From: Escherichia coli
Lineage (GTDB): Bacteria; Pseudomonadota; Gammaproteobacteria; Enterobacterales; Enterobacteriaceae
Direction: 5' to 3' (one strand)
NCBI RefSeq assembly: GCF_001677475.2
Contig: NZ_CP015229.1
Length of the DNA: 64,000 nucleotides
Shown here piece after piece: positions 1 to 42,703 of this stretch; position 1 is the first letter of the stretch; the number at the start of each line of letters is the position of its first letter. The position numbers were made by a program, and so were the translations under genes. The notes beneath the pieces were generated by a model. That model had not been told where the DNA came from and did not search any database. It was given only the letters and a program-made list of their open reading frames with translations.

Positions 1-616
1 GATGCTGTTCCGCCATAAGGCGACGGATATTGCCCGCGAACTCATCATCCTGAATCAGCGACAAATGGGCGCTGAGGATGGTTTTGCTTTCGCCGTCACG
101 CTCGCGCAACTGCTGGTTCAGTTGCTCGGCAAGCGTTGCCAGGCTGTGCTCCAGCCAGGTGGAATCTTGCGCACTGGCCGGGATCGCCCGATAACTGTCG
201 AGGCTGTCGCTCTGTAACAGGGTCAGTGTACCCACGCCGACGCCGCTTGCCAGCACATTGCCGTACAGTAAATCCGGGTTAAGGCGGCTTAATGAACGCG
301 GCAGCGGATGCGCCGTCAGTTCTGCCTGCGTCGGCTGAACGCTGTCGCTGTCGATAAAGCGCACCTGGATGTACTCTTCCAGCACGCGCCGCGCCTGCTC
401 TTCATCGCTGCCGCTAATGTTCAGGCTGCAACTGTCATTAAATAAGGTGCCGGTGCCAATCAGCGCCAGTGAACTTTTGGCATCGGCCTTTGCGTTCTGG
501 CGATGGTTAATAAAAGTGATTTCGCTTTGCCACTGGCTGCACTGCTCTTTAAGTTCCCACGCCGGACGAGCATGTAGACCGTTAGGCAAAGGACAGAGAA
601 ATTGAATCGTTAACAT
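1..616 (-). CDS. fryA: PTS multiphosphoryl transfer protein FryA, N-terminal part only (gene runs off the window start)
   Basis: Minus-strand ATG at 616 with GGAG RBS upstream; translation begins MLTIQFLCPLPNGLHARPAWELKEQ (HPr-like domain); open frame continues to position 1. Not in the ORF track because no stop lies inside the window. Confidence 0.85.
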   Translation of the reverse strand, partial: MLTIQFLCPLPNGLHARPAWELKEQCSQWQSEITFINHRQNAKADAKSSLALIGTGTLFNDSCSLNISGSDEEQARRVLEEYIQVRFIDSDSVQPTQAELTAHPLPRSLSRLNPDLLYGNVLASGVGVGTLTLLQSDSLDSYRAIPASAQDSTWLEHSLATLAEQLNQQLRERDGESKTILSAHLSLIQDDEFAGNIRRLMAEQH

Positions 617-640
617 AACCGCTCCGGGTTAATCAGGAGA

Positions 641-1678
641 TCATCTGAAATCCGTCAGTTGAACAACCGTCTCACGCGTAAGACGTTGAATAAGGGCAGA
701 TAAAAGCTGCTGCATCTGCAAGATGTCGCGGCAGTCGGCAATCGATGCGGCGCAATGTCCATGGCGGGTTGCTGGCCCCATCACCACTGTGGGTACGCCA
801 GTACCGGTTAAGTGAACCGCTCCACCGTCCGTGCCGCCGTTACTGAACATATCCGCCTGTAACGGCACGCCAATTTCTGCCGCCACGGTTTCGATCCAGG
901 CGGTGAGTTTTGGCGGCGCAATCAGTGACTTGTCGCTTAACACCAGCATCGGGCCGTTACCAATCTGGCGATGGTTAGCCGTGCCATAATCAAAGTTTTT
1001 CGCCCAGCAGGCGGTATCAAGCACAATGGCGACGTCCGGCGACACCGCGCGGGTGGCAGTTTGCCCGCCGCGTAATCCCACCTCTTCGCTCGAACTTGCC
1101 ACCAGCCACACTTCCGCAGGCAGTTCGGCGTCGTGCAGCTCACGTAGTAACGTCACCAGCAGATAGCAACCGAGGCGGTCATCAAAAGCTTTCCCCATCA
1201 CTCGCTGGTGGGGGAGAACCTGAAAAGTAGTATCAAACGTGACGCGATCGCCTGGGCGAATTCCCGCCTGCATCACTTCGTCATACGAGCGCGCACCAAT
1301 GTCCACGCGCATGGCGCTGACATCATTCCCCTGCCGGTCGCCGTCAAGCAGGCCGGGAATTTTGCACTCTTTACGGGTGGTGATGCGCACCGGCTGCAAC
1401 TGGCGGGCAGCCATGCGCACGTTGCCAACCGGCAGCACGTCAATAGCGCCTTCGCGGGAGATGCTGCGCACCATAAATCCCACTTCGTCCATATGCGCAC
1501 AGATCATCACTTTCGGACCTGTCGATTCATTGAGGCGGATCAGCACCGATCCCAGACCATCAAATCGCACTTCTTTTTGCAGGCGATCCGCTTCTTCCAG
1601 CAGGATCTGCCGCACTTCCTGTTCCGAGGAGGCGATCGCATCGGCCTCGCTCAACGCTTTTAATAGCGATAAATCCAT
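641..1678 (-). CDS. ypdE: M42-family aminopeptidase YpdE
   Basis: 345 aa ORF; N-terminus [21 protein letters not shown]; start overlaps ypdF stop by 1 nt (TAATG). Confidence 0.9.
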
Positions 1679-2763
1679 TATGCCTCTCCCGTGAGCAACA
1701 CTGTTTTCGGCATGGCGTAGAGCACTTCTGCGCCTTGCGGGGTAACCAGCACAACATCTTCGATGCGCACGCCCCCTTGCCCTGGCAAATAAATCCCCGG
1801 CTCTACGGTCAGTAACATGCCAGGCTGTAGCGTCGTGGTGTCCCTCGGTGAAAAACGCGGATCTTCATGGACTTCAATGCCGATAGCATGACCGGTGTTG
1901 TGGCCAAAATAGTCGCCATAACCGGCTTCTGTAATGACCCGGCGCGCGGCATCGTCAACCTGCTGGCAGCGCACGCCGGGGCGAATCGCGGAGATTGCCG
2001 CGAGCTGTGCCTGCAGGACAATCTGATAGACGTTAAACAGCGGGTGAGATTCGGCGCTCACCCCTTCGCCATTCACCAGCAAGGTGCGCGTCATATCAGA
2101 GCAGTAGCCCTGATATAGCGCACCGAAATCGAGAGTGACAAACTCGCCCGCTGCAACAATCTTGTCGCTGGCTTTGCCGTGCGGCAGCGCCCCACGCCAG
2201 CCACTGGCGACAATGGTGTCAAAAGAGGCTTTTTCTGCGCCCTGCTGGCGCATAAACCACTCCAGTTCAGCGGCTATCTCGCGCTCGCTCATCCCCGCCT
2301 GAATAAAGCGGCGAATATGCTCCGCTCCGCGATCGGCAATCCCACAGGCGAGGCGGATTTTCTCCACCTCCTCTGGCGTTTTGATTTGCCGCAGCACATC
2401 CGGCGTGGCGCTTACCAGTTTCGCATTGAGTTCAGACTGCCAGCGGTGCGCGGTTTCCCAACTCACCTGCTGGCCTTCAAAACCGAGCGTTTGCAACTGC
2501 TCATCGGCAATGATTTGCCTGACGACGGTTGTAAGCGTGTGCGTCGCGTCAAGCAAATGCAGCGGGTAGCCTTGCGTGCGAGCTTCCACATCCGCGTAAT
2601 AGCGCGAATCCACCAGAATGTGCGCACTTTCACGGCTAATCACCACATAACCTGATCCGGTGGAGATCCCCAGATGCGGCTGTTTGTTCTGCCGTGAGGA
2701 GAGAAGCACTGCATCCAGTTGTTGCGCCTTAAGCCAGTCGCGCAGCGAAGCGAGTAATGTCAT
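1678..2763 (-). CDS. ypdF: Xaa-Pro aminopeptidase YpdF (M24 family)
   Basis: 361 aa ORF with HxxxH/E metal-binding signature region typical of M24 peptidases; position between fryC and ypdE. Confidence 0.9.
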
Positions 2764-2777
2764 CTGGATTTTCCTTC

Positions 2778-4025
2778 TTACAGGCTATCGATTAACAATT
2801 TACCTTTGCGGAACATCATCAGACGCAGGAACACCACCATCAGCGCAGTTATGACTGCCCCCAGCGCGATCCCCGCCATATAGACGCCCAGGTTAGTGAC
2901 CAGCGGCCATGCCCAGATAGCGGATTCCGGGAACCATTGCACTGCGCCCAGCCAGACAGCGGCGGTTGAGCCGACAATAGCACCGACCATATACGACGGA
3001 ATGGCGGTGATGGGACTTTCCAGCGCAAACGGAATCGCACCTTCACTGATCCCCATAAACGCCAGGAACATCGCGGTTTTACCCTGCGGATAAAGTTGGG
3101 CGTTGAACAGACGTTTGCCGGTTAAACGGCGGTCGATAATGGTCGCCAGACCCAGACCAATCGGCGGAATAACAATAGCGATGGAACGCGCGGTAACCGG
3201 TAATACGTGGTCAGTGGTAAAGCTGAAGGCAACGAAACCAGCTGCTTTGTTGATCGGGCCACCAAGGTCGATTGCTGTCGCCGCGGCGATCCCCATCGCG
3301 TACATCAGCGCGCCCTTCTCACCTGCGGCAGTCAGCACGGTACGGATACCGCCGTTGATCCAGCCACCAAAGGGGGTGATGACGTAGTACATCGCCAACA
3401 TGACAAAAATGGCGGAAAGAATCGGTAGCAAAAATGTGGTTTTGAACGCTAACAGGAATTCCGGTAACTGGATTTTCTGGTTCATCCACTTCACAAGGTA
3501 ACCAGCAACGATAGAAATAATCAGGGCACCAATGAAGGTGGACGGCACCGGCGAAGAGGTCGCCCATTGCATAGTGCTGGGATCGAAGTTCAGCAGTTGC
3601 GTCGGCTGGGTAGACATCAACCCGCCGATAAAACCAGCCGGGAACGCCAGTTTGCCACCGATAGAGTTCGCCACAAATGCAGCAAACATCGGAATGGCAA
3701 AACCAAACAACACGCCGCCGAAGGACTGCGACAACCAGGCAAATTTCAGTAAGGAGAGGTCGAAACCGGAGAATTTCCCGCTATTAAGAGCATCCATGAT
3801 GCCGATATCAGCAGGAATTTTAAGCCAGCTATAAGCAATCAGCTGGCTGAAAGCGAGGATCACACCGCCCATAATTAAGGTCGGCACCATGCGTGAAATC
3901 CCTGACATCACATGCTGCGGGAGTTCACCCCAGAAGCTGCTTTTAGAGGCCTGCGGATTCTTAACTGCCGCTGCCGCACCGGATGCGCCAGGCACAACGG
4001 TTGCACTGCGTTTTTTAATGGCCAT
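2778..4025 (-). CDS. fryC: PTS fructose-like EIIC component FryC
   Basis: 415 aa polytopic membrane ORF with PTS EIIC character; synteny with fryB/ypdF. Confidence 0.9.
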
Positions 4026-4046
4026 AACAATTATCCCTGTCGAATA

Positions 4047-4373
4047 TTACTGTTGTTCAGAGGCAATCATCTCTTCGATTTCTTTGATGATGCCCGCAGC
4101 GTTTTTAATTGCGTCCTGCAAAGTGATTTCATAAACGTCGCGTGATTCGAAACGTTCGTTATCTTCCGGGGTAACTGCCACTGAGTGGATGATGATGGTC
4201 GCTTCGGCGATATCCTGCACCGTCAGGCGATTCTGGATGCCGTCCGCGCCCTGAGTTTCAATTTTCACTTCATAGCCTGCTTCCACCGCCGCTTCTTCCA
4301 GCGCCTGGGCTGCCATAAAGGTGTGAGCCAGACCCATAGGGCAGGCACATAAAGCAATCAGTTTCTTACTCAT
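4047..4373 (-). CDS. fryB: PTS fructose-like EIIB component FryB
   Basis: ORF track gives 125 aa; the RBS-supported start is the internal ATG (MSKKLIALCACPMGLAHTFMAAQ), giving 108 aa with the CxxxxxxH-like EIIB cysteine motif; GAGGA RBS upstream. Confidence 0.85.
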   Translation of the reverse strand: MSKKLIALCACPMGLAHTFMAAQALEEAAVEAGYEVKIETQGADGIQNRLTVQDIAEATIIIHSVAVTPEDNERFESRDVYEITLQDAIKNAAGIIKEIEEMIASEQQ

Positions 4374-4552
4374 CGTTAATTCCTCGTTCAGTGATAGTTG
4401 ACGATTGAAATTATGAACGTGCAAAACAAATCGCCGTTACCAGACAAATAATGCATTTACTGGAGAATTAATCCCGCTGTACGGAAGTGTGACGCAGGTC
4501 GGCCTTGTGAGGAGGACACAAAGAAAAATTGAATTAACTGTATGATTTAAAA

Positions 4553-4582
4553 GATTATCGGGAGAATTACCTCCCGATATAA
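4553..4582 (-). terminator. Intrinsic terminator downstream of glk
   Basis: Hairpin ATCGGGAG-AATTAC-CTCCCGAT followed by a T-rich run on the minus strand, just after the glk stop. Confidence 0.6.
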
Positions 4583-4592
4583 CAGGAAGGAT

Positions 4593-5558
4593 TTACAGAA
4601 TGTGCCCTAAGGTCTGGCGTAAATGTGCACCGGAACCGAGAAGACCCGGATTGTCATGGACGATGAGATACACCGGAATATCATGGACATATTCTTTAAA
4701 GCGCCCTTTATCTTCAAATGCGGCACGGAAACCAGAGGCTTTGAAGAACTCAAGGAAGCGCGGCACGATACCGCCCGCAATAAACACGCCGCCAAATGTC
4801 CCTAGATTGAGCGCCAGATTGCCGCCAAAACGGCCCATAATGACGCAAAACAGCGACAACGCGCGGCGGCAATCGGTGCAGCTGTCAGCCAGCGCGCGTT
4901 CGGTAATATCTTTTGGCTTGAGATTTTCTGGCAGGCGGTTGTCGGCTTTAACAATTGCGCGATACAAATTCACCAGCCCAGGGCCAGAAAGCACGCGTTC
5001 CGCCGAAACATGGCCAATTTCCGCACGCAGTATTTCGAGGATAATGGCCTCTTCTTCACTATTCGGCGCAAAATCAACGTGACCGCCTTCGCCTGGCAAG
5101 CTTACCCAACGCTTATCGACATGGACCAGATGTGCAACCCCAAGCCCCGTTCCGGCACCGTAAACCGCAATAGGCTTACCTTCGACCGGTTCTGCGCCAC
5201 CAAACTGAATCAGATGCTCTTTTTTCAGCATCGGGATCGCCATCGATACAGCGGTAAAATCGTTAATAATTTCCAGATGGCTAAAACCGAGATTCTTTTT
5301 CATTTCGGCAATTGAGAACGCCCAGGTATGGTTGGTCATTGCCACCCAGTCACCGGTAATTGGGCAAGCGATGGCAATACAGCCGTCTTTCACCTCGACC
5401 TTATGTTCTTCAAGATAAACGCGAATGACCGCTTCGAGGCTGGGGTAATCAAGCCCTGAATAGGTCTTAGCCTGCGAGATTTCACCACTGGCAATATCAC
5501 ACAGAGCAAGACGTGCGTTGGTGCCGCCCACATCACCGACTAATGCATACTTTGTCAT
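4593..5558 (-). CDS. glk: Glucokinase
   Basis: 321 aa; N-terminus [21 protein letters not shown] (ROK/glucokinase ATP-binding motif). Confidence 0.97.
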
Positions 5559-5761
5559 TCTTCAACTGCTCCGCTAAAGTCAAAATAATTCTTTCTCACA
5601 CTGTAAATTCCTGGGGGCATAACAACAACGCCGGAAAGGCAGGCTCCCTGTAAATATCGATCTGGGTCACACAATTACTTTATCGTTTCAGCACCAATTG
5701 CAGCGATGCCTTTTTGCAAGCTGGGCAAACTAAGTATCTGACCCCGCATAAGGAATAGAAC

Positions 5762-7018
5762 ATGCTCCATCCGCGAGCCAGAACCATGTTGTTATTATCG
5801 CTCCCCGCCGTGGCAATTGGGATTGCGTCCAGTCTTATTCTGATTGTGGTGATGAAAATCGCCTCGGTATTACAGAATTTGCTCTGGCAACGACTGCCGG
5901 GAACTCTGGGGATAGCCCAGGATTCACCTTTCTGGATCATCGCCATATTAACGCTAACAGGTATTGCGGTGGGGTTGGTTATCCGTTTCAGCCAGGGGCA
6001 TGCTGGACCAGACCCCGCCTGTGAACCGCTGATCGGCGCACCGGTTCCGCCCTCTGCGCTACCAGGACTTATCGTAGCATTAATTCTCGGTCTTGCTGGC
6101 GGCGTCAGCCTGGGGCCGGAACATCCGATCATGACCGTCAATATCGCCCTTGCCGTCGCCATTGGCGCTCGTCTGTTACCGCGCGTCAACCGAATGGAGT
6201 GGACTATTTTAGCCTCTGCCGGAACCATCGGCGCGCTGTTTGGCACACCTGTTGCGGCGGCGTTGATATTTTCGCAAACCTTAAATGGCAGTAATGAAGT
6301 GCCGCTATGGGATCGACTCTTTGCGCCGTTAATGGCAGCGGCGGCTGGTGCGCTGACGACAAGTCTATTTTTCCACCCCCATTTTTCGCTGCCCATTGCG
6401 CATTACGGACAGATGCAGATGGCAGACATTATCAGCGGTGCGATTGTAGCGGCGATTGCCATCGCTGCGGGGATGGTCGCCGTATGGTGTCTGCCACGGT
6501 TGCACGCAATGATGCATCAGATTAAAAACCCTGTGCTTATGCTCGGGGTTGGCGGGTTTATTCTCGGTATTTTGGGGGTTATTGGTGGGCCGGTTTCACT
6601 GTTTAAAGGGCTGGATGAGATGCAGCAAATGGTGATGAATCAGGCTTTCAGCACCAGTGATTACTTTTTACTGGCGGTGATTAAGCTCGCCGCTCTGGTC
6701 ATTGCCGCCGCCAGCGGGTTTCGTGGCGGGCGAATCTTCCCGGCAGTGTTTGTTGGCGTGGCGTTAGGTTTGATGCTACATGAACACGTTCCCGCAGTCC
6801 CGGCGGCAATTACTGTCTCCTGCGCTATTCTCGGTATGGTACTGGTGGTAACGCGCGATGGCTGGTTAAGCCTGTTTATGGCGGCAGTCGTTGTACCTGA
6901 TACCAATCTGCTACCGCTACTTTGTATCGTTATGCTTCCGGCATGGCTATTGCTGGCTGGCAAACCGATGATGATTGTGAATCGCCCGAAGCAGCAACCA
7001 CCCCACGATAATCTTTAG
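5762..7018 (+). CDS. yfeO: ClC-family putative ion channel YfeO
   Basis: 418 aa polytopic membrane ORF; N-terminus [20 protein letters not shown]; AAGGA RBS. Confidence 0.9.
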
Positions 7019-7132
7019 CAAAAAATGCTCTCCATCATGATTTAAGAGTTATGGCGATGAAACGGGGCTTTACCTCCCCGTAATATTGCGTTAACAGGCC
7101 GCTGACGGCTTCGATCGTGAAGGAGAATATCA

Positions 7133-7459
7133 ATGTTCAGGTCACTGTTTCTGGCGGCCGCCCTGATGGCTTTTACCCCGCTTGCGGCAAACGCAGGTGA
7201 AATTACCCTACTGCCATCAATCAAATTACAAATTGGCGATCGCGATCATTACGGTAATTACTGGGACGGTGGTCATTGGCGCGACCGTGATTACTGGCAT
7301 CGTAATTACGAATGGCGTAAAAACCGCTGGTGGCGTCACGATAATGGCTACCACCGTGGCTGGGATAAGCGTAAAGCGTATGAGCGTGGCTATCGTGAAG
7401 GCTGGCGCGACCGTGATGATCATCGAGGGAAAGGCCGTGGACACGGACATCGTCATTAA
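7133..7459 (+). CDS. ypeC: Small secreted protein YpeC (DUF2502), W/R/H/D-rich
   Basis: 108 aa; signal peptide [21 protein letters not shown] followed by low-complexity [18 protein letters not shown]...GHGHRH; GGAG RBS. Confidence 0.85.
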
Positions 7460-7483
7460 ACACATCCACCAATGGAGCACGAT

Positions 7484-7575
<92 letters not shown>

Positions 7576-7600
7576 TGTGCCTGGTACGACGCCAGTTGAA

Positions 7601-8848
<1,248 letters not shown>

Positions 8849-8851
8849 CTA

Positions 8852-8873
8852 AAACATAGCCTTTGCTATGTTT
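8852..8873. promoter_or_regulatory. MntR operator (palindrome) in the mntH leader
   Basis: AAACATAGC-CTTT-GCTATGTTT perfect inverted repeat immediately upstream of the mntH RBS; matches the MntR box as I recall it. Confidence 0.75.
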
Positions 8874-8890
8874 CATGCTATGCCAAACGA

Positions 8891-8910
8891 GAATGATTAT
8901 CAAATTCATT
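8891..8910. promoter_or_regulatory. Fur box candidate upstream of mntH
   Basis: GAATGATTATCAAATTCATT resembles the GATAATGATAATCATTATC Fur consensus; mntH is known to be Fur/MntR co-regulated. Confidence 0.5.
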
Positions 8911-9174
8911 TGAATGGATTGTGGTGATTTCTCTGATAGACCAGGATTATGACTACGAAAAGATTGATGACTTGAATGTTATGGTTATGTTTAATGTTAG
9001 CACATTTACATAACTTTCAGCTTCCATACACAACATAGCAGAAATGTATGACAGCTCACTATTTTTGAAGCTTGTCACAGGACGTCATTATAGTGTGTGT
9101 CAGATCTCGTTTTCCTTAACCATGTTACATAGAATGTGCACGGAAATTTAACCTGCCTCATATTTGGAGCAAAT

Positions 9175-28468: not shown

Positions 28469-30196
28469 ATGATTTCAGGCATTTTAGCATCCCCGGGTAT
28501 CGCTTTCGGTAAAGCTCTGCTTCTGAAAGAAGACGAAATTGTCATTGACCGGAAAAAAATTTCTGCCGACCAGGTTGATCAGGAAGTTGAACGTTTTCTG
28601 AGCGGTCGTGCCAAGGCATCAGCCCAGCTGGAAACGATCAAAACGAAAGCTGGTGAAACGTTCGGTGAAGAAAAAGAAGCCATCTTTGAAGGGCATATTA
28701 TGCTGCTCGAAGATGAGGAGCTGGAGCAGGAAATCATAGCCCTGATTAAAGATAAGCACATGACAGCTGACGCAGCTGCTCATGAAGTTATCGAAGGTCA
28801 GGCTTCTGCCCTGGAAGAGCTGGATGATGAATACCTGAAAGAACGTGCGGCTGACGTACGTGATATCGGTAAGCGCCTGCTGCGCAACATCCTGGGCCTG
28901 AAGATTATCGACCTGAGCGCCATCCAGGATGAAGTCATTCTGGTTGCCGCTGACCTGACGCCGTCCGAAACCGCACAGCTGAACCTGAAGAAGGTGCTGG
29001 GTTTCATCACCGACGCGGGTGGCCGTACTTCCCACACCTCTATCATGGCGCGTTCTCTGGAACTACCTGCTATCGTGGGTACCGGTAGCGTCACCTCTCA
29101 GGTGAAAAATGACGACTATCTGATTCTGGATGCCGTAAATAATCAGGTTTACGTCAATCCAACCAACGAAGTTATTGATAAAATGCGCGCTGTTCAGGAG
29201 CAAGTGGCTTCTGAAAAAGCAGAGCTTGCTAAACTGAAAGATCTGCCAGCTATTACGCTGGACGGTCACCAGGTAGAAGTATGCGCTAACATTGGTACGG
29301 TTCGTGACGTTGAAGGTGCAGAGCGTAACGGCGCTGAAGGCGTTGGTCTGTATCGTACTGAGTTCCTGTTCATGGACCGCGACGCGCTGCCCACTGAAGA
29401 AGAACAGTTTGCTGCTTACAAAGCAGTGGCTGAAGCGTGTGGCTCGCAGGCGGTTATCGTTCGTACCATGGACATCGGCGGCGACAAAGAGCTGCCATAC
29501 ATGAACTTCCCGAAAGAAGAGAACCCGTTCCTCGGCTGGCGCGCTATCCGTATCGCGATGGATCGTAAAGAGATCCTGCGCGATCAGCTCCGCGCTATCC
29601 TGCGTGCCTCGGCTTTCGGTAAATTGCGCATTATGTTCCCGATGATCATCTCTGTTGAAGAAGTGCGTGCACTGCGCAAAGAGATCGAAATCTACAAACA
29701 GGAACTGCGCGACGAAGGTAAAGCGTTTGACGAGTCAATTGAAATCGGCGTAATGGTGGAAACACCGGCTGCCGCAACAATTGCACGTCATTTAGCCAAA
29801 GAAGTTGATTTCTTTAGTATCGGCACCAATGATTTAACGCAGTACACTCTGGCAGTTGACCGTGGTAATGATATGATTTCACACCTTTACCAGCCAATGT
29901 CACCGTCCGTGCTGAACTTGATCAAGCAAGTTATTGATGCTTCTCATGCTGAAGGCAAATGGACTGGCATGTGTGGTGAGCTTGCTGGCGATGAACGTGC
30001 TACACTTCTGTTGCTGGGGATGGGTCTGGACGAATTCTCTATGAGCGCCATTTCTATCCCGCGCATTAAGAAGATTATCCGTAACACGAACTTCGAAGAT
30101 GCGAAGGTGTTAGCAGAGCAGGCTCTTGCTCAACCGACAACGGACGAGTTAATGACGCTGGTTAACAAGTTCATTGAAGAAAAAACAATCTGCTAA
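28469..30196 (+). CDS. ptsI: PTS Enzyme I
   Basis: 575 aa; [51 protein letters not shown]; [13 protein letters not shown] phosphohistidine motif. Confidence 0.98.
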
Positions 30197-30236
30197 TCCA
30201 CGAGATGCGGCCCAATTTACTGCTTAGGAGAAGATC

Positions 30237-30746
30237 ATGGGTTTGTTCGATAAACTGAAATCTCTGGTTTCCGACGACAAGAAGGATACCGGAACTATTG
30301 AGATCATTGCTCCGCTCTCTGGCGAGATCGTCAATATCGAAGACGTGCCGGATGTCGTTTTTGCGGAAAAAATCGTTGGTGATGGCATTGCTATCAAACC
30401 AACTGGAAACAAAATGGTCGCGCCTGTAGACGGCACCATTGGTAAAATCTTTGAAACCAACCACGCGTTCTCTATCGAATCTGATAGCGGCGTTGAACTG
30501 TTCGTCCACTTCGGTATCGACACCGTTGAACTGAAAGGCGAAGGCTTCAAGCGTATTGCTGAAGAAGGTCAGCGCGTGAAAGTTGGCGATACTGTCATTG
30601 AATTCGATCTGCCGCTGCTGGAAGAGAAAGCCAAGTCTACCCTGACTCCGGTTGTTATCTCCAACATGGACGAAATCAAAGAACTGATCAAACTGTCCGG
30701 TAGCGTGACTGTGGGTGAAACCCCGGTTATCCGCATCAAGAAGTAA
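30237..30746 (+). CDS. crr: Glucose-specific PTS EIIA (EIIA-Glc)
   Basis: 169 aa; [39 protein letters not shown]. Confidence 0.98.
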
Positions 30747-30760
30747 TTCTTGCCGCAGTG

Positions 30761-30790
30761 AAAAATGGCGCCCATCGGCGCCATTTTTTA
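30761..30790. terminator. Bidirectional terminator between crr and pdxK
   Basis: AAAAATGGCGCC-CATC-GGCGCCATTTTTTA; overlaps the pdxK stop codon. Confidence 0.8.
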
Positions 30791-31639
30791 TGCTTCCGCC
30801 AGCGGCGGCAAAATCAATTCATCGCTCTCATGCTGCTGGGTATAGCGCATCACCTCCAGCACACGTAATCCCGCGCTATGTACCGCGTCAGTTAATTCCT
30901 TACCTTTCAACAAGCCACTGATAAGCTGAGCACAAAACAGGTCGCCAGTCCCTTTCAGGTCAGTTTTAACCCGTGAATGGGAAATGACATTCACGCTGTC
31001 GGCACTGACCACCACCACCTGCATCTCCTGATTTTCTTCATTACCGGAGACGCTGGTAATCACCACCCATTTTAATGTGTCTGAAAGCAGACTTTTTGCG
31101 GCAGCAATGGCACTGTCGAGATCGCGGCAATTTTTACCGGTCAGGATTTCCAGCTCAAAAATATTGGGGGTAATTCCCTGCGCCAGCGGCAGTAAATATT
31201 GTCGATACGCCTCGGGAAGGTCAGGTTTGACATAAATTCCGCTATCAATATCGCCAATCACTGGATCGACCATGATCAATAGGTCAGGATGATCTTTGCG
31301 TAGTGCAGTCAGCCACTCGGCAAGGATTTTGATTTGCGATGCCGTTCCCATATAGCCCGTGGTTACAGCACGAAGTTGGCGCAACGCATCACGCTCCTGA
31401 AGCGCACGCAAATAGCCGCTAAACCATTCGTCCGGAATCGCACCACCGTAGAAAGTGTCATAATGCGGTGTATTGCTCAGCAATACAGTCGGCACGGCAA
31501 AGACATTCAAGCCGTTCTGTTTTATAGCAGGCACCGCAATGCTGTTGCCTACGCTGCCGTACACTACCTGCGACTGCACGGCGACGATATCCGCCTGCAA
31601 TGCCCTGCTCTTATCGTTAAACAACAACAAACTACTCAT
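30788..31639 (-). CDS. pdxK: Pyridoxal/pyridoxine/pyridoxamine kinase
   Basis: 283 aa; [40 protein letters not shown]. Confidence 0.95.
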
Positions 31640-31652
31640 TTAATTTTTTCTC

Positions 31653-32112
<460 letters not shown>

Positions 32113-32114
32113 TC

Positions 32115-33026
32115 TTAAATCCCTGCCCCCTGGCTAAAATGCTCTTCCCCAAACACCCCGGTAGAAAGGTAGCGATCGCCGCGATCGCAGATGATCGCGA
32201 CCACCACCGCGCCGGGGTTAGCTTTTGCCACGCGCAGTGCTCCGGCAACCGCGCCGCCAGAGCTGACGCCACAGAATATTCCTTCCCGCACTGCCAGTTC
32301 GCGCATGGTGTTTTCTGCATCGCGCTGATGAATATCCAGCACCTCATCCACCAGCGAAGCGTTGAAAATCCCCGGCAGATATTCCGCAGGCCAGCGGCGA
32401 ATGCCGGGAATGCTACTGCCCTCTTCCGGCTGCAGGCCAACAATGGTCACCGGTTTGGATTGTTCGCGCATAAAGCGTGAAACGCCGGTGATAGTGCCGG
32501 TTGTTCCCATGCTGGAGACAAAATGGGTAATGCGCCCGCCAGTTTGCTGCCAGATTTCCGGCCCGGTGGTAGTATAATGGGCGTAGGGATTATCAGGATT
32601 ATTGAACTGATCGAGCAGCTTTCCTTCACCACGATTCGCCATTTCAAGCGCCAGATCGCGCGCACCTTCCATGCCCTGCTCTTTGGTGACAAGAATCAGT
32701 TCCGCACCATAAGCACGCATCGCCGCACGGCGTTCCTGGCTCATGTTGTCGGGCATCAGCAATTTCATGCGATAGCCTTTAAGCGCGGCAATCATTGCCA
32801 GCGCAATGCCGGTGTTACCACTGGTGGCTTCGATCAGCACGTCACCCGGTTTAATTTCCCCGCGCTTTTCCGCCTCGACGATCATCGAAAGTGCCGCACG
32901 ATCTTTTACCGAACCTGCCGGGTTATTGCCTTCCAGTTTCAACCAGACTTCACTGCCGTTATTCGGCCCCATTCGCTGCAACTTCACCAGAGGCGTATTG
33001 CCAATTGTTTGTTCTAATGTACTCAC
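32115..33026 (-). CDS. cysM: Cysteine synthase B (O-acetylserine sulfhydrylase B)
   Basis: ORF track shows a 329 aa open frame; the start is taken as GTG at 33026 (STLEQTIGNTPLVKLQRMGP...), giving 303 aa; PLP motif SVKDRAA. Confidence 0.92.
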   Translation of the reverse strand: MSTLEQTIGNTPLVKLQRMGPNNGSEVWLKLEGNNPAGSVKDRAALSMIVEAEKRGEIKPGDVLIEATSGNTGIALAMIAALKGYRMKLLMPDNMSQERRAAMRAYGAELILVTKEQGMEGARDLALEMANRGEGKLLDQFNNPDNPYAHYTTTGPEIWQQTGGRITHFVSSMGTTGTITGVSRFMREQSKPVTIVGLQPEEGSSIPGIRRWPAEYLPGIFNASLVDEVLDIHQRDAENTMRELAVREGIFCGVSSGGAVAGALRVAKANPGAVVVAIICDRGDRYLSTGVFGEEHFSQGAGI

Positions 33027-33049
33027 GATCTCTATCCATACGTGGTGTT

Positions 33050-33086
33050 GCCTGATGCGACGCTTGCGCGTCTTATCAGGCCTACA
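33050..33086. repeat. REP element between cysA and cysM
   Basis: GCCTGATGCGACGCTTGCGCGTCTTATCAGGCCTACA, canonical REP, inside the cysPUWAM transcription unit. Confidence 0.8.
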
Positions 33087-33159
33087 GGTTACAAACCTTG
33101 CCATTAAAAAGCCCGGATCGCGGGAAGCGCCTCCGGGCGTTTAACATTCACTCAACCTA

Positions 33160-34257
33160 TCAGGCGCTTTGTGCGAGAGCAAGTTCCTCATCGCGGGTTT
33201 CAATACGCTCGTCGCCGTTATACAGCCGCGCATGTTGCAGACCAACGAATAAACGCTCGCCACGTTGCGGGGCGTCGTCGCCGTGCATCACGACCGTCAG
33301 CGCTTCGTTGTACCACCCCAGCGGCTGCACGACTAATTGGGTGTAGTGGCCTTTCGGGCTGGCTTCCAGTACCTGTACCGGCAGCGGCGAATCGAGGCTG
33401 GTACGGCGGCTGATATCCACTTCCCACGGACGCAGGAAGAGATCCACCGGCCCCTGATACGCAGGTGTATAGCCCAGCGGCCAGCGATGTGCGCCAACAT
33501 GGAACTGCCCGCCGCGAATGGTTCCCTGCAGGCGGTTCACTTCGCCCATAAATTCGAGTACAAAACGGGTCGCTGGTTCGCGCCATACCTGGTCCGGTGC
33601 ATCAGCCTGCTCGATATTGCCCTGGCTCATCACCACTACACGATCGGCTACTTCGGTCGCTTCTTCCTGGTCATGGGTCACAAACACGCTGGTGAATTTC
33701 AGCTCTTCATGTAACTGACGCAGCCAGCGACGCAGCTCTTTACGCACCTGCGCATCCAGCGCGCCAAACGGTTCATCAAGCAGCAGAATTTGCGGTTCTA
33801 CAGCCAGCGCGCGCGCCAGCGCTACACGCTGTTTCTGGCCGCCGGAAAGCTGCGCCGGATAACGATCCGCCAGATGGGCAAGCTGCACCATCTCCAGCAA
33901 TTTTGTCACTTTCGCTTTGATCGCCGCGGCATTCGGGCGCTCGCGACGCGGCAGCACCGTCAGGCCAAAAGCGATATTGTCGAACACCGTCATATGACGG
34001 AATAGCGCGTAATGCTGGAACACGAAACCGACTTTACGGTCCCTCGCGTGCAGACGGCTGACATCGGTACCGTGAAAGCGAATTTGTCCGCTGGTTTGAT
34101 GCTCCAGCCCGGCAATAATGCGCAGCAGCGTGGTTTTCCCGGAACCGGACGGCCCCAGCAACGCGACCATCTGACCAGAAGGAATATCCAGTGAGATATC
34201 GTTCAGCACCTGGGTGCGACCAAACGACTTCTTAATATTGGCAATCTCAATGCTCAT
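33160..34257 (-). CDS. cysA: Sulfate/thiosulfate ABC transporter ATP-binding protein
   Basis: 365 aa; Walker [10 protein letters not shown], signature [15 protein letters not shown]. Confidence 0.97.
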
Positions 34258-35122
34258 GATGCTCCTCCTGCTGCGCGCGTTTTTCCTGATTCTCCAGGCG
34301 CCACTGCAACATACTCTTTAAAAACAAGGTGATAATCGCCATCAGCGTCAACAGCGCGGCGGCGGTAAAGGAGCCGACGGTGTTGTAGTCCTGCTCCAGC
34401 AATTCAATCTGTAACGGCAGCGACAGGGTTTCACCGCGAATCGAGCCGGAAACCACCGATACCGCGCCAAACTCGCCAATCGCGCGGGCGTTGGTCAGCA
34501 CCACGCCGTAAAGCAGCGCCCAGCGAATATTCGGTAATGTGACGCGACGGAACATCTGCCAGCCGGACGCGCCAAGCAAAATCGCCGCTTCGTCCTCCTG
34601 GCTGCCCTGGCTTAACATCACCGGCACCAGCTCGCGCACCACAAATGGACACGTCACGAAGATGGTGACCAGCACCATTCCCGGCCACGAGAACATAATT
34701 TGCAGGTTATGCTCGTCGAGCCAACCGCCCAGCGGGCCATTAGAGCCGTAGAACAGCAGATACACCAGACCGGCAACCACCGGCGATACGGCAAACGGAA
34801 TGTCCAGTAGCGTCAGCAGTAACTGGCGTCCAGGGAAGTTAAAGCGCGTCACCAGCCAGGCCAGCAGAATGCCGAACACCAGGTTCACCGGCACGGCAAT
34901 CAGCGCAATCATCACCGTCAGCCAGATGGCGTGCAGCATGTCCGGGTCAGCCAGATTCTGTATAACTGGCATCAGCCCTTTGCTGAACGCCTGTATGAAG
35001 ATATAAATCATCGGCACCAGCAGGATGAACGCCGATACCAGCATCCCGATGCCAATCAGAAACCATTTGCCCCAGTTAATCGGGCGCGCGTCATAACGCT
35101 TCAATTGTGTCACTTCCGCCAT
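34247..35122 (-). CDS. cysW: Sulfate/thiosulfate ABC transporter permease CysW
   Basis: 291 aa membrane ORF; 11-nt overlap with cysA. Confidence 0.95.
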
Positions 35123-35955
35123 TAATGACCTACCACACGCCGACCAAAGCGACTTTGCAGAGTGTTAATTGAGAACAGCAGCATCAGGGATGCCGCGAGG
35201 ATCACCGAAGCAATCGCGCTCGCCGCCGGGTAATCAAACTCCTGCAAGCGCACAAAAATCATCAGCGACGTAACTTCCGTCTTCCAGGCGATGTTCCCGG
35301 CGATAAATATCACCGCGCCAAACTCACCAAGACTACGGGTAAACGACAGCGCAATACCGGCAATCAGCGCCGGAGAGAGTTCTGGCAGCACCACTTTGCA
35401 GAAGCTCTGCCAGCGCGTTGCACCGAGCGTTTCTGCCGCTTCTTCATATTCCGGCCCTAACTCTTCCAGCACCGGCTGCACGGTACGCACTACAAACGGA
35501 ATGCTGGTAAAGGCCATCGCCACCGCAATCCCCAGCCAGGTATAGGTGACTTTGATATCAAACTTCGCCAGCCATTCACCGTAAAAACCGTTCACGGAAA
35601 AGAGCGAGGCCAGCGTTAAACCGGCCACTGCCGTTGGCAGCGCAAAGGGTAAATCCATCAGCGCATCAAGCAGCGTGCGGCCAGGGAAGCGATAACGGGT
35701 TAAGATCCACGCCATCAGCAGGCCGAAAACACCGTTAAAAATCGACGCGACAAACGCCGACAGCAGCGTCACTTTATAGGCCGCGACCACCTGCGGATTG
35801 GTGATCACCTCCCAGTACTGCGCCCAGCTCATCTCAGAAAGCTGCATCACCAGCGCGGAGAGCGGCAGTAACAAAATCAGGCACACAAACAGCAGACTGG
35901 TGCCGAGGCTCAGGGTAAAGCCCGGCAACACGCGTCGTGAAGAAACTGCAAACAT
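35122..35955 (-). CDS. cysU: Sulfate/thiosulfate ABC transporter permease CysU (CysT)
   Basis: 277 aa membrane ORF; start/stop overlap with neighbours. Confidence 0.95.
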   Translation of the reverse strand: MFAVSSRRVLPGFTLSLGTSLLFVCLILLLPLSALVMQLSEMSWAQYWEVITNPQVVAAYKVTLLSAFVASIFNGVFGLLMAWILTRYRFPGRTLLDALMDLPFALPTAVAGLTLASLFSVNGFYGEWLAKFDIKVTYTWLGIAVAMAFTSIPFVVRTVQPVLEELGPEYEEAAETLGATRWQSFCKVVLPELSPALIAGIALSFTRSLGEFGAVIFIAGNIAWKTEVTSLMIFVRLQEFDYPAASAIASVILAASLMLLFSINTLQSRFGRRVVGH

Positions 35956-36971
35956 TACTTACGCCCCGCCGCTAACAGCTTGTCTAACTCGCCGCCGCTG
36001 GTGAAGTGGGTTTTCATCACTTCCGGCCAGGAGCCAAATTTGTCTTCCACGCGGAACAGATCGGTCTGCGGGAATTTGTCTTTCAGTTTGTCCATGACTT
36101 CCGGGTTATTTACGCGGTAGTAATAGTCGGTGATGATGGTTTGCGCCTGCGGGCTGTAGAGCCAGTTCAGGTAGGCTTTTGCTGCTTTTTCCGTACCGTT
36201 GGCCTGCACGTTTTTATCGACCCACGCCACCGGGAATTCCGCCAGAATGTTGGTTTTCGGAATCACCACTTCAAAGCCCTGCGCTTCATACTGTTTACGG
36301 ATGTTGTTCACTTCCGACTCGAAGCTGATCAGCACATCGCCCAGGCCGCGCTCGGCAAAAGTGGTGGTCGCGCCACGACCGCCGGTATCGAACACTTCAA
36401 CGTTTTTCAGGAACTGGGTCATAAACTGTTCGGTTTTGGCTTTATCGCCACCGTCAGCTTGATCCGCTACGCCCCATGCCGCCAGATAGGTATAACGCGC
36501 GTTACCCGACGTTTTCGGGTTCGGGAAAATCAGCTTCACGTCGGAGCGCACCAGGTCGTTCCAGTCGTGGATATTCTTCGGGTTGCCCTTACGCACCAGG
36601 AAGCCCATGGTGGAGTAGAACGGCGAGCTATTATTCGGCAGGCGCGACTGCCAGTCTGCCGGGATCAGCTTGCCTTTGTCATGCAGGATCTGTACGTCAG
36701 TCACCTGGTTATAAGTGACAACGTCGGCTTTTAAGCCCTGCAAAATTGCCAGCGCCTGTTTTGATGACCCGGCATGAGATTGTTTTATCGTCAGTTTGTC
36801 GCCGCCGTTATCTTTTGCCCACTGCTGTTCAAACGGGATATTCAGGGCGGCAAACAGCTCGCGGGAGACGTCATAAGAACTGTTCAGCAGTTCCGTTGCC
36901 TGTACATGGCCCGCCAGCAGCAGAGAAGCGACCAGCGCGAGTGAGTTCTTTTTCAGTAAGTTAACGGCCAT
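35955..36971 (-). CDS. cysP: Periplasmic thiosulfate-binding protein
   Basis: 338 aa; signal peptide [25 protein letters not shown]. Confidence 0.95.
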
Positions 36972-37274
36972 TGCGCACCCTTATAAATTTAATGACTTTC
37001 TAATAGTCATCATATTTATAACGGACGTGAAAGGAGTAACGGTTTTATATACCGTTTGGTGATTTGGAAGTTGAAAAGGGAATAAGAACTTGGTTCAACA
37101 GGCGTAATTGTTGCAGTCAGTTTGGACACGGACAGCGCGGAGAAACCGGAGCGTACACATAGTACGTGAGGATTTCGAGCACTGCCCGGGGCAAAAATGA
37201 CAAATAAAATAGCCTGGTGAACTTAGTTCAAGACGAAATCCTCCCCACACATGCAGGGAGGAAACAGAGGTGAA

Positions 37275-38066
37275 TCAGATGCCGACGCTAACCGTCTCCG
37301 GCAGTGTGCTGCCGCCATCAATCACATTCTGTGTACCGGTTAAATAACTTGATTCATCCGATGCGAGGAAGGCTGCCAGTTCGCCGACTTCCAGCGGATC
37401 GGCGAGGCGACGCATCGGGATTGCTTTTGCCATTTCAGTCAGCACCGATTCTGGATCTTCCGGGTTCGACTGGCGGGCAATGCTTTCCGCCATTGGCGTG
37501 CGAACGTATCCCGGGCAGATGGCGTTAACGCGAATACCAGACTGCGCGTACTCCACCGCCAGCGATTTAGTCAGGCCAACAATCGCCGCTTTCGTTAAGG
37601 CGTACGCCGTTTCACCCGGATCGGCCACCATATCGCCAGTGACCGAAGACATCATCACAATGCGACCATCTTTGCGGGCAATCATCTCCGGCAGCACCGC
37701 CTTCGTGACGTTCCATACGCCTTTAATATTGATATCAATATGGAAATCGCGATCTTCATCGCTCATATCGAGGAAACTGCCCAGACGACAAACGCCTGCG
37801 TTATTCACCAGGATATCAATGCGCCCTTCTTTTTCCTTCGCGCGCTTGATAGCTGCGGCTACCGACGCCGGGTCACGCACATCGGCGACAACCGCCGTAC
37901 AGCGATGACCACGACCACACAGTTCGTCCGCCAGTTTTTCGATCTCAGGGGAGATATCCAGCAAGATTAGGTTTGCGCCATGACGCGCAAAAGTTCTGGC
38001 AATTCCTTCGCCAATTCCCTGCAATGCGCCCGTAATCAGTGCTGTCTTGCCCGTGAGTTTACCCAT
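37275..38066 (-). CDS. ucpA: Short-chain dehydrogenase/reductase UcpA
   Basis: ORF track 285 aa; AAGGAGA RBS supports start at MGKLTGKTALITGALQGIGEGIA (263 aa), classical SDR TGxxxGIG and YxxxK motifs. Confidence 0.92.
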   Translation of the reverse strand: MGKLTGKTALITGALQGIGEGIARTFARHGANLILLDISPEIEKLADELCGRGHRCTAVVADVRDPASVAAAIKRAKEKEGRIDILVNNAGVCRLGSFLDMSDEDRDFHIDINIKGVWNVTKAVLPEMIARKDGRIVMMSSVTGDMVADPGETAYALTKAAIVGLTKSLAVEYAQSGIRVNAICPGYVRTPMAESIARQSNPEDPESVLTEMAKAIPMRRLADPLEVGELAAFLASDESSYLTGTQNVIDGGSTLPETVSVGI

Positions 38067-38194
38067 TTTAATGCTCTCCTTGTTAATACAGAGCGTTACA
38101 CTCCATTCCCTCTGAAAATACAGGATAAACAAAATATTGCTGCGGATCAGCTCACTAATTCAGGAAAATCTCAATTCAGTCGCTGCTTTATGCA

Positions 38195-39052
38195 TCATTT
38201 CAGGCGTTGCGTTAGCTCACTGCTGCGCTCAATCATTTTCAATGACTCCACATCATTGAGTTGCACAAGGCCAACAAACAGTAAATCGGTAACAGAATTT
38301 TGCGCCGTGCGGGTGGACATCGACGAGCTGCGCCATTCGGTTTCGCCAGAAACGGTATCGAGGGTGAAATGCGCCAGCCGCCGCAGCGGGGAATCGGTTA
38401 ACGAGGTAATGGCAATCACCGTTGCCCCCTGCTTTCGCGCTGCCTCGGCGCACAGCACAATCTCTTTTTTACTGCCGCTGTAAGAGATAGCGATTTGTAC
38501 ATCGCCTTTTTTTAGCGCCTGGGAAACGGTGGCTTGTACATGTGTGTCGGCTTCGCAGGCCACGCGATAGCCAATTTTCATCAGTTTGAATGAAAGATCG
38601 CGCCCCACCAGCGCCGACCCGCCCAGGCCCGTTATCTGGATAAACGGTGCTTTACTGATGACCTCAATGATTTTTTGCAGCCGCGCGTAGTCGAACAACG
38701 CGCAGGTTTGCTCCAGCGCCAGTTCTTTTTCGCGATTCAGTTTGCGGGCAATCACTTCCAGCGAATCATCACTGGTAATCGAACTGTGCAGGTGCAGCGC
38801 CGTGGCATTCGTTTTCTCCCGGCTGGCACTGTATTCGCCAATTAACGCCATACGCAATTCAGTAAATCCTTGCGCGCCGAGCTTCTGGGCAAACTTCACA
38901 ATACTCGACTGACTGATGCCGAGCTGTTTCGCCATCTTGCGCGAAGAAACGGATTTCAGCTCACTCACGTTGTCCTGCAGAAAGTCAGCAATTTTTTGCT
39001 CGTTCTCGGTAAATTCACTTTCCGCATTGCGTATTTTCGTCAGGTACAACAT
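38195..39052 (-). CDS. murR: RpiR/SIS-family repressor MurR
   Basis: ORF track 370 aa; start chosen at [24 protein letters not shown] (285 aa), HTH plus SIS domain; divergent from murQ. Confidence 0.9.
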
Positions 39053-39215
39053 CTTCCACTCTCCTGGGCTGGCAGCAAAAATTCCGCTTAAGTTCTTATG
39101 ACGCTCTTCACACTCTGCGAGTGTAGACTCAATGATTCCTTTAAGTCTGTCAATTCGGGATATATGATTCCATACATCTGCAATTATTTGATCGTAAATA
39201 GTAAGGTCACCACCG

Positions 39216-40112
39216 ATGCAACTTGAAAAGATGATTACCGAAGGCTCGAACGCCGCCTCGGCTGAAATTGACCGCGTATCAACGCTGGAAATGTGCCGGA
39301 TTATCAACGATGAAGATAAAACCGTGCCGCTTGCCGTTGAGCGCGTACTGCCGGATATCGCCGCAGCGATCGATGTTATCCACGCCCAGGTAAGCGGCGG
39401 CGGGCGTCTGATTTATCTCGGTGCGGGAACATCAGGTCGTCTGGGGATTCTGGATGCCAGCGAATGTCCGCCGACCTACGGCGTGAAACCGGGCCTGGTA
39501 GTTGGTTTGATTGCTGGCGGCGAATATGCTATTCAGCACGCGGTGGAAGGCGCGGAAGATAGCCGGGAAGGTGGTATTAATGATCTGAAAAATATCGGCT
39601 TAACCGCGCAGGATGTGGTGGTTGGTATTGCGGCCAGCGGACGCACGCCGTATGTGATTGCCGGACTGGAATACGCACGCCAGCTTGGCTGCCGCACAGT
39701 GGGAATTTCCTGTAATCCCGGGAGCGCTGTTTCAACTACCGCAGAGTTTGCCATTACGCCGGTAGTTGGGGCCGAAGTGGTCACTGGTTCTTCTCGAATG
39801 AAAGCAGGTACGGCGCAGAAACTGGTGCTCAACATGCTCTCCACCGGGCTGATGATTAAATCCGGCAAAGTGTTCGGCAACCTGATGGTCGATGTGGTCG
39901 CCACCAACGAAAAACTGCATGTGCGCCAGGTCAATATCGTTAAAAACGCCACCGGATGTAATACCGAACAAGCAGAAGCGGCGTTAATTGCCTGCGAACG
40001 CAACTGTAAAACTGCCATTGTGATGGTGCTGAAAAATCTCGATGCCGCAGAAGCTAAAAAACGCCTGGATCAACACGGCGGCTTTATTCGTCAGGTTTTA
40101 GACAAGGAATAA
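39216..40112 (+). CDS. murQ: N-acetylmuramic acid 6-phosphate etherase
   Basis: 298 aa; [41 protein letters not shown] domain. Confidence 0.97.
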
Positions 40113-40115
40113 CCC

Positions 40116-41540
<1,425 letters not shown>

Positions 41541-41545
41541 TATCA

Positions 41546-41635: not shown

Positions 41636-41663
41636 CAAGTATATGCGGCGTTAAAGCAGTAAT

Positions 41664-41700: not shown

Positions 41701-41719
41701 ATCAATGAATCAGAAACGC

Positions 41720-42703
<984 letters not shown>

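Follow-up and report, generated by a model that had tools for sequence, protein, structure and literature searches.

Escherichia coli possesses several operons that encode orphan permeases of the phosphotransferase system (PTS), namely fry, frv, frw and sgc. To our knowledge, no substrates have been established for these operons since the genome was sequenced, and nobody has linked the M42 metallopeptidase gene carried by three of them to sugar transport. All three M42 paralogues of strain K-12 (ypdE, frvX and sgcX) are located in PTS operons: frvABXR and sgcXBCQAER each combine an orphan PTS permease with an M42 gene, and neither has an assigned substrate. A working analogy is provided by MngA/MngB and by the frl and gfr (fructoselysine/glucoselysine) systems, in which an imported sugar-acid or sugar-amino acid conjugate is phosphorylated and split by a dedicated cytoplasmic enzyme. 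FryABC themselves are called putative or “fructose-like”, with the substrate not known, in a 2017 paper (PMC5364489) and a 2023 review (PMC10305011). A related cluster of Latilactobacillus sakei LT-13 (LACBS_00568-00576) comprises PRD regulators, an aminopeptidase, a lactose/cellobiose-type (Lac-type) PTS IIA/IIB/IIC, an RDD protein, an aminopeptidase and MalY, a beta-lyase and amino-acid racemase; the cluster has been drawn without functional interpretation (PMC5845896). Here we analyze the fry locus at one end of a 64,000-nucleotide stretch of E. coli DNA (assembly GCF_001677475.2, contig NZ_CP015229.1; hereafter the window). The locus itself was already known; what the comparative evidence adds is that the pairing of a PTS with two peptidases is conserved and is usually joined by a C-S lyase.

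The locus lies on the minus strand and consists of the following genes, with coordinates taken from the listing of open reading frames (ORFs) and their translations:

4373-4047, minus strand: fryB, 108 aa, fructose-type PTS EIIB
4025-2778, minus strand: fryC, 415 aa, fructose-family PTS EIIC permease
2763-1678, minus strand: ypdF, 361 aa, M24B Xaa-Pro aminopeptidase
1678-641, minus strand: ypdE, 345 aa, M42 metallo-aminopeptidase
616-1, minus strand: 5' part of fryA, codons 1-205 of 831, cut by the window edge

The gene set fryB-fryC-ypdF-ypdE-fryA, its placement and its strand, as proposed by a first-pass annotation of this DNA, are in agreement with the ORF listing, the translations, Pfam, NCBIfam and the RefSeq annotation. 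In 5414 of 5426 complete E. coli genomes, the region corresponds to the fry locus, for which RefSeq annotates the same genes; it is the known E. coli operon b2387-b2383 with its 3' end cut by the window edge. Relative to K-12, identity ranges over the five genes from 96.2 to 97.5% for DNA and from 97.8 to 99.3% for protein, no stops interrupt the reading frames, and the dN/dS values of 0.02-0.12 for all five genes demonstrate strong purifying selection. The ypdE start codon overlaps the ypdF stop codon as ATGA, which suggests translational coupling of the two peptidase genes. Judging from its products, the operon is predicted to encode a self-contained fructose-family PTS together with two cytoplasmic metallo-aminopeptidases.

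Homologues of YpdE were searched among 1.8 billion representative proteins, and their loci were scanned in one genome per species; the best 80 loci form the sample to which the locus counts refer, and were annotated by BLAST against a panel of reference proteins combined with family clustering. The nearest non-enterobacterial homologues show 41-44% identity to YpdE, and their contigs encode a PRD/EIIA regulator, an M42 peptidase, Lac-type IIA, IIB and IIC, an M24 peptidase and a class I/II aminotransferase-fold protein, followed in one case (L006) by alanine dehydrogenase. In a neighbour-joining tree of 84 M42 proteins, YpdE belongs to a single clade that contains two types of clusters, A and B. 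All 27 loci of this clade that come from other genomes, representing three phyla, are linked to a PTS; about 50 other M42 genes, from Bacillales and other groups, have no PTS neighbour, and the YpdE clade is separate from these and from FrvX. A gene combining Creatinase_N and M24 domains is present in 24 of the 25 informative loci of the clade. The combination of a PTS with these peptidases had been considered unusual, which holds for the E. coli literature and fails in general, since the PTS-M42-M24 linkage recurs across three phyla.

Type A clusters have the order IIB-IIC-M24-M42 and are found with fryA and ypdC in Enterobacterales (Escherichia, Citrobacter, Pseudocitrobacter, Enterobacter, Superficieibacter and Hafnia), and with a PRD regulator, a separate EIIA and the aminotransferase-fold gene in Clostridia (Caproiciproducens, Hungatella, Enterocloster and a Lachnospiraceae metagenome-assembled genome). 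Type B clusters, with the order M42-IIA-IIB-IIC(Lac)-M24, were identified at 15 loci of Clostridium, Terrisporobacter, Streptococcus cuniculi, Companilactobacillus, Faecalibacillus, Erysipelotrichales, Olsenella, Collinsella and Vibrio, and often end with a gene for an RDD-family membrane protein. The peptidases are homologous across the loci (37-49% identity for M42 and 34-47% for M24), and the PTS is either fructose-type or lactose/cellobiose-type. Orthology of FryB and FryC with the PTS proteins of the Lac-type clusters was rejected: FryC matches the L006 IIC with E = 8e-4 and the IIB proteins do not match. Because FryB and FryC are far closer to the Caproiciproducens proteins (77% and 62% identity, with the same lengths of 108 and 415 aa) than to FrvB, the paralogue encoded in the same E. 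coli genome (40% and 27%, respectively), the four-gene core is orthologous across phyla, and its spread was probably by horizontal transfer.

The aminotransferase-fold gene encodes a C-S lyase of the PatB family: TIGR04350 is the best match for all 13 proteins tested and scores above the curated cutoff in 11. Of the 17 informative non-enterobacterial loci, 16 have PatB as a neighbour, as against none of the eight enterobacterial ones; the PRD regulator is also missing from the vicinity of the latter, which have fryA and ypdC instead. The presence of PatB suggests that one product of the pathway is a beta-substituted alanine (a Cys or Ser derivative), the leaving group of which can be eliminated to yield pyruvate. 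No glycoside hydrolase was found in any annotated cluster. The Caproiciproducens cluster additionally encodes mannose-6-phosphate isomerase (ManA), suggestive of mannose-6-phosphate in at least one lineage. Two E. coli genes were considered as counterparts of the cluster lyase and rejected: the product of alaC, located 7 kb away, has about 20% identity to the cluster proteins, which are PatB C-S lyases, and identity between MalY and the cluster PatBs is only 28-29%.

Other arrangements of M42 genes were encountered in the same survey. A third type of PTS-M42 cluster was noticed in Clostridium baratii (L044, 4169-13135) and at locus L038; the C. baratii cluster contains an aspartase-like lyase (Lyase_1), an RDD protein, Lac-type IIB and IIC, a GRDB-like fragment, two M42 genes and a sigma-54/PRD regulator. 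Homologues of 700-790 aa, examined as possible M24-M42 fusions that would attest to coupling of the two peptidases, proved to be tandem M42-M42 proteins encoded beside Mur-ligase genes and not beside a PTS, and were discarded as evidence. Such tandem fusions, and paired M42 genes next to Mur-ligase-family genes, occur on metagenomic contigs with no PTS nearby (L089, 7001-10753; L090 and L091, 2913-5286; L096, 6289-8426).

The assignment of the PTS proteins is based on family models and motifs. FryB matches PF02302 and the fructose-type EIIB model TIGR00829 (91.2 bits against a cutoff of 76.85), and carries the N-terminal active-site cysteine motif LCACPMGLAHT. FryC barely passes the fructose-type EIIC model TIGR01427 (157.8 bits against 157.55) and matches PF02378 with 51.4 bits against 30.7. 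The translated residues 1-205 of FryA, which have 99.0% amino acid identity to the same residues of the K-12 protein, comprise an HPr-like domain with the phosphorylation motif GLHARP, a linker and the start of the N-terminal domain of enzyme I (EI). In the full-length orthologue from a matching E. coli genome, Pfam detects HPr (6-84), PEP-utilisers_N (119-234), PEP-utilizers (262-334), PEP-utilizers_C (360-650) and PTS_EIIA_2 (687-826). The complete protein is thereby predicted to be a triple HPr-EI-EIIA fusion, of which the EI mobile and phosphoenolpyruvate (PEP)-binding domains and EIIA lie outside the window; the earlier description of an HPr-EI-like fusion was correct for these two components and incomplete in omitting EIIA.

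Both peptidases also belong to the families proposed initially, an M24 Xaa-Pro aminopeptidase and an M42 aminopeptidase, as is evident from the Pfam, NCBIfam and Protein Data Bank (PDB) matches and the catalytic residues. YpdE covers PF05343 completely (287 bits, model positions 1-292 of 292), reaches 679 bits with the E. coli-specific equivalog PRK09961 (cutoff 412), matches the solved structure of a YpdE orthologue, PDB 1YLO, with E = 1e-224, and has a dN/dS of 0.025 relative to K-12. Its di-metal ligands H62, D166, E198/E199, D221 and H308 are invariant in the M42 alignment. YpdF contains PF01321 (Creatinase_N) and PF00557 (Peptidase_M24), scores 815 bits with the E. coli-specific equivalog PRK09795 (cutoff 393), and has a solved structure, PDB 5CNX “Aminopeptidase YpdF”. 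The motifs LDFG, SDMTR, GHAIG, VEPG and RIED place D212, D223, H292, E321 and E335, which we take to be the five M24B metal ligands. Weak NCBIfam matches to ectoine hydrolase were recorded for this protein as well. In biochemical work by Zheng et al. in 2005, YpdE was reportedly a broad exo-aminopeptidase and YpdF a Xaa-Pro aminopeptidase with limited Met-aminopeptidase activity, the two forming a complementary pair. The aminopeptidase activity of YpdE has been characterized (ref. 51 in PMC3511314), and the protein has been described as dodecameric on the basis of unpublished data (PMC3511314).

Two segments of the peptidase genes are variable. Seven of the eight amino acid differences between the window and K-12 YpdF are clustered in a 26-residue stretch of the N-terminal domain (codons 57-82, window positions 2517-2595); the dN/dS of ypdF is raised to 0.12 because of this cluster, which could be a recombined segment or a variable surface. 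In ypdE, an in-frame deletion of 27 aa at codons 72-98 (window positions 1385-1465), flanked by the 8-bp repeat GGTGCGCA, is found in some E. coli and Shigella proteins, for example P0024, present on 157 contigs. The deletion is rare, the segment being retained in 5413 of 5426 complete E. coli genomes in a blastn comparison; the same 81 nt are unusually polymorphic, with 80-90% identity to the window in 1601 genomes. An apparent deletion allele in 1561 genomes in a megablast search was rejected as an artefact of the 28-nt word size, as K-12 itself has no exact run of 28 nt in this segment.

Taken together, the five proteins could make up a single catabolic route that degrades sugars linked to amino acids or short peptides, a reading to which we assign roughly even chances of being right. 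Because a complete fructose-family PTS is combined with complementary aminopeptidases, and because the linkage is kept through a change of the transporter family, a substrate shared by the two halves of the operon is the most economical inference: it would contain a phosphorylatable sugar and a peptide or amino acid part with a free N-terminus. The EI, HPr and EIIA domains of FryA would relay phosphate from PEP to the FryB cysteine, and FryC would import the conjugate with phosphorylation of its sugar part. YpdE and YpdF would then shorten the peptide part from its free N-terminus, residues before proline being the task of YpdF. This would leave free amino acids together with either a sugar phosphate or a sugar-phosphate-amino acid, the latter to be finished by other enzymes. 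Under this reading, the broad M42 and the proline-specific M24B enzymes together could degrade proline-rich peptides. Transcription would start from an activator-dependent promoter upstream of fryB, probably under the control of the adjacent AraC-type regulator YpdC. Among possible substrates, we rank O- and S-glycosyl amino acids and peptides first and aminoacyl-amino-sugars second.

More tentatively, and with less confidence than in the catabolic route itself, fry may be viewed as the enterobacterial representative of a class of PTS, widespread and so far undescribed, that import sugar-amino acid or sugar-peptide conjugates, which would be dismantled by the M42 and M24B pair; in Firmicutes and Actinobacteria, beta-elimination by PatB, rather than a glycosidase, would take off the phosphosugar or break down the amino acid released. 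Such a class might act on Ser/Thr/Cys peptides of proline-rich glycoproteins that bear O- or S-linked sugars, or on aminoacyl-amino-sugars. If this is true, it would define a new class of PTS substrates, give a physiological role to the PTS-linked M42 peptidases (YpdE and perhaps FrvX and SgcX), and might account for the long-puzzling pairing of malX with malY. The conserved pairing makes the substrate question testable, and with it the existence of a new kind of nutrient for bacteria of the gut, food and the urinary tract.

Published phenotypes of fry genes are few. In uropathogenic E. coli (UPEC), a ypdE deletion mutant is outcompeted in the mouse bladder with a competitive index of 0.30 (PMC8767336); because ypdE matters for fitness at this site, the substrate may be derived from the host. 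An in-frame deletion of fryA improves plating on LB medium after prolonged culture (PMC5364489), and ypdF and fryA are up 1.5-1.9-fold in a table of the CpxR regulon (PMC2731931). A full-text literature search revealed no substrate assigned to fry or to the PTS-M42-M24-PatB cluster, and no publication that would establish a conventional sugar substrate; the operon remains, as the first-pass annotation put it, annotated and poorly characterized.

Several considerations weigh against conjugate catabolism. The counts of linked loci extend only as far as the 80-locus sample, with one genome per species, and the M42 tree carries no bootstrap support. The coupling of the PTS with the peptidases is deduced from conserved gene neighbourhoods only. 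We know of no substrate, induction condition or transport assay for fry, nor of PTS permeases that carry peptide conjugates; the nearest PTS precedents are glycosides with small aglycones and fructoselysine/glucoselysine. A glycosidic bond cannot be broken by aminopeptidases alone, and the enterobacterial operon includes neither a hydrolase nor PatB, for which MalY is the distant relative described above. Ordinary peptides are said to be cleaved in vitro by both YpdE and YpdF in the study of Zheng et al. Finally, fryA is probably a frameshifted pseudogene in the lineage from which the window comes, the lesion lying beyond the window edge.

The first alternative retains the joint pathway and changes the bond that is cleaved. 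The substrate could be an aminoacyl-amino-sugar, in which an amino acid forms an amide with the amine of a hexosamine, as in the Cys-GlcN moiety of bacillithiol and mycothiol; after phosphorylation of the sugar by the PTS, YpdE or YpdF would cleave the amide with the amino-sugar phosphate as the leaving “residue”, an amino acid would be set free along with hexosamine-6-phosphate, the latter entering central metabolism, and PatB, where present, would degrade the released cysteine. Such a substrate would account for the absence of a glycosidase and for the eight Enterobacterales loci and the Vibrio locus L034, which would work with peptidases alone, better than an O- or S-glycosyl conjugate does, as well as for the presence of a cysteine-degrading C-S lyase in Firmicutes and Actinobacteria; the M24 fold is also used for hydrolysis of non-peptide amides, to which the ectoine hydrolase matches of YpdF are relevant. 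However, this activity is not reported for M42 or M24B enzymes, the proline-specific enzyme is left with no role, and the glucosamine of bacillithiol and mycothiol is also glycosidically bound to malate or inositol, so that a hydrolase would still be needed. The proposal is entirely inferential, and we consider it unlikely.

A second alternative, to which we likewise give little credence, is that fry encodes a conventional PTS for a “fructose-like” sugar or polyol, and that ypdE and ypdF are unrelated general cytoplasmic peptidases that happen to be co-transcribed. The scores of FryB and FryC as fructose-type IIB and IIC, and the cleavage of ordinary peptides in vitro, fit this view, and E. 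coli holds several orphan PTS paralogues of the fructose family (PMC10305011). However, linkage to a PTS at every one of the 27 loci of three phyla, retained through a swap of the PTS family, is not expected of passenger genes; ypdF and ypdE appear to be translationally coupled inside the operon, and related M42 genes outside the YpdE clade have no PTS neighbours.

The third alternative, which corresponds to the word “cryptic” in the first-pass annotation, treats the operon as a remnant of horizontal transfer that does little or nothing in this lineage at present and is kept mainly by inertia. It draws on the lack of a consensus promoter and of a published inducing condition, on the origin of the genes and on the state of fryA. 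The GC content of ypdE and ypdF (641-2763) is 57.5% versus 52.6% in the whole window and 51.3% in the adjacent glk, which is consistent with a foreign origin of the operon, and the closest relatives of its PTS are clostridial. The first 5763 nt of the window are 100% identical to GCA_018683295.1 and 99.98% to GCA_016118665.1, and in both assemblies fryA lacks one G of a G5 run located 8-12 nt beyond window position 1 (L099, 5771-5775; the same in L098). This shifts the frame at about codon 210 and leads to a stop at codon 253; among 24 contigs read with the YpdF allele of the window, fryA is disrupted or uncalled in 23. Since the frameshift is found in assemblies 99.98-100% identical to the window, the dedicated phosphorelay is probably broken in the source lineage, and the pathway may be impaired there. 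Nevertheless, the frameshift appears to be confined to one recent lineage, as the 99.3% identical relative L100 has an intact fryA, and the low dN/dS across all genes, the near-universal presence of the locus in complete E. coli genomes, the integrity of the four complete genes with their catalytic residues, and the fitness phenotypes of ypdE and fryA alleles all speak against a remnant, which we regard as improbable. There is no demonstration of crypticity: purifying selection acts on the genes, and in UPEC ypdE has been validated as a gene for bladder fitness.

That YpdE, and possibly YpdF, is a hydrolase of a sugar phosphate and not a peptidase, in line with the old annotation “CelM endoglucanase / Frv operon protein”, with the company that M42 genes keep with three E. 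coli PTS (Fru, Fru and Gat) and with some database names and PDB titles that still read endoglucanase, is the least credible option by far, given that aminopeptidase and not cellulase activity was shown for M42 proteins that had been annotated as cellulases (PMC3511314) and that YpdE has a full M42 metal site and measured aminopeptidase activity. The conservation pattern, the selection signal and the published enzymology weigh, in turn, against the passenger, remnant and non-peptidase explanations.

In two regions of the window, 1-9000 and 30001-42000, even the best of the 5426 complete E. coli genomes reaches only 96-97% identity, yet the YpdF, YpdE and FryC proteins of the window have exact matches in NCBI records labelled E. 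coli. The source is a divergent Escherichia lineage, possibly a cryptic clade, with few representatives among the complete genomes. Within 30001-42000, some E. coli genomes align in two pieces that span about 1.2 kb of extra DNA and have pbp4b in their feature lists, and others are colinear; the window may lack the pbp4b (yfeW) gene.

The region upstream of fryB was compared in six enterobacterial genera, including two in which the upstream neighbour is different. The following features were delineated:

4579-4556, minus strand: glk terminator hairpin (perfect 9-bp stem, then a T-rich tail), which delimits the fry transcription unit on its upstream side
4492-4485, minus strand: conserved upstream block TCACACTT, invariant or near-invariant in the six-genus alignment
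4474-4460 and 4454-4440, minus strand: two 15-nt direct repeats, GGATTAATTCTCCAG and GCATTATTTGTCTGG, respectively, 20 nt apart from start to start
4415-4410, minus strand: putative -10 box CATAAT of the predicted fry promoter, from the six-genus alignment

The -10 box is identical in five of the six genera aligned, including genera with another upstream neighbour, and reads CATACT in Hafnia. The right end of the operon had been set at 4424, a TTG that merely extends the ORF and lies upstream of this conserved box; the start of fryB is the ATG at 4373, which is conserved in the RefSeq annotation. No consensus sigma-70 promoter (at least 9 of 12 positions) was found upstream of fryB, and the -35 element is not recognizable. 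The block of direct repeats is conserved in all six genera, and the proximal repeat abuts the -35 position, a layout typical of sites for AraC-type activators. The repeat motif was rejected as a signal of a window-wide regulon: because it is not enriched by itself (11 matches in the window against 7 expected), the support for the repeats comes from their position and conservation. They are a candidate AraC-type activator site, possibly for YpdC. The AraC-family gene ypdC is convergent with fryA in Hafnia (L016, 13564-14445) and Superficieibacter (L015, 13563-14423), where glk, ypdAB and alaC are not neighbours. Owing to the layout of the repeats and to this linkage, YpdC is probably a dedicated regulator of the fry operon. 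It was also observed that ypdC, usually grouped with the ypdAB two-component system, instead travels with the fry operon.

Two other candidate elements upstream of fryB were rejected, namely a CRP site, in which the spacing of TGTGT..TCACA differs between the window and K-12, and a sigma-54 promoter, with a spacing off by one and a stretch that is not conserved. Within the operon, predicted matches to terminators and promoters are no more numerous than in shuffled sequence, and no known RNA elements were found in window positions 1-6000, the sole match (E = 0.058) being far below its gathering score.

In relation to the systems described so far, the locus is orthologous to the K-12 fry operon, with matching genes, gene order, strand relationship, spacing and flanking glk; it differs in the seven clustered substitutions of YpdF at residues 57-82 and in the probable frameshift of fryA in the source lineage. 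The comparison with frv, which the first-pass annotation had suggested, places FrvX in a separate M42 clade with 35% identity to YpdE; SgcX, at 32%, is in another separate clade. Both the frv and sgc operons differ from fry in having no M24 partner and no EI/HPr of their own. Furthermore, frv encodes a fused IIBC and a regulator with helix-turn-helix and EIIA domains, in contrast to the separate IIB and IIC genes and the AraC-type regulator of fry, and the PTS of sgc belongs to the galactitol family. The cluster of L. sakei LT-13 resembles fry in the same peptidase pair beside a PTS and matches type B, but has a PTS of the lactose/cellobiose family, PRD regulators, PatB/MalY and an RDD protein, and no dedicated EI/HPr.

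The fry-like clusters of Clostridia (Caproiciproducens faecalis, Enterocloster lavalensis, Hungatella and Lachnospiraceae) share the syntenic IIB-IIC-M24-M42 core, with identities to the E. coli proteins of 74-77% for FryB, 57-64% for FryC, 43-47% for YpdF and 42-49% for YpdE; they differ in the separate EIIA, the upstream PRD/Mga/EIIA regulator and the downstream PatB, and lack fryA and ypdC. The analogy with MngA/MngB, frl and gfr concerns the logic of the pathway and not its enzymes: those systems employ a GH38 mannosidase or SIS-type deglycases, none of which are present in fry, whereas the companion enzymes of fry and the fry-like clusters are aminopeptidases, with or without a C-S lyase.

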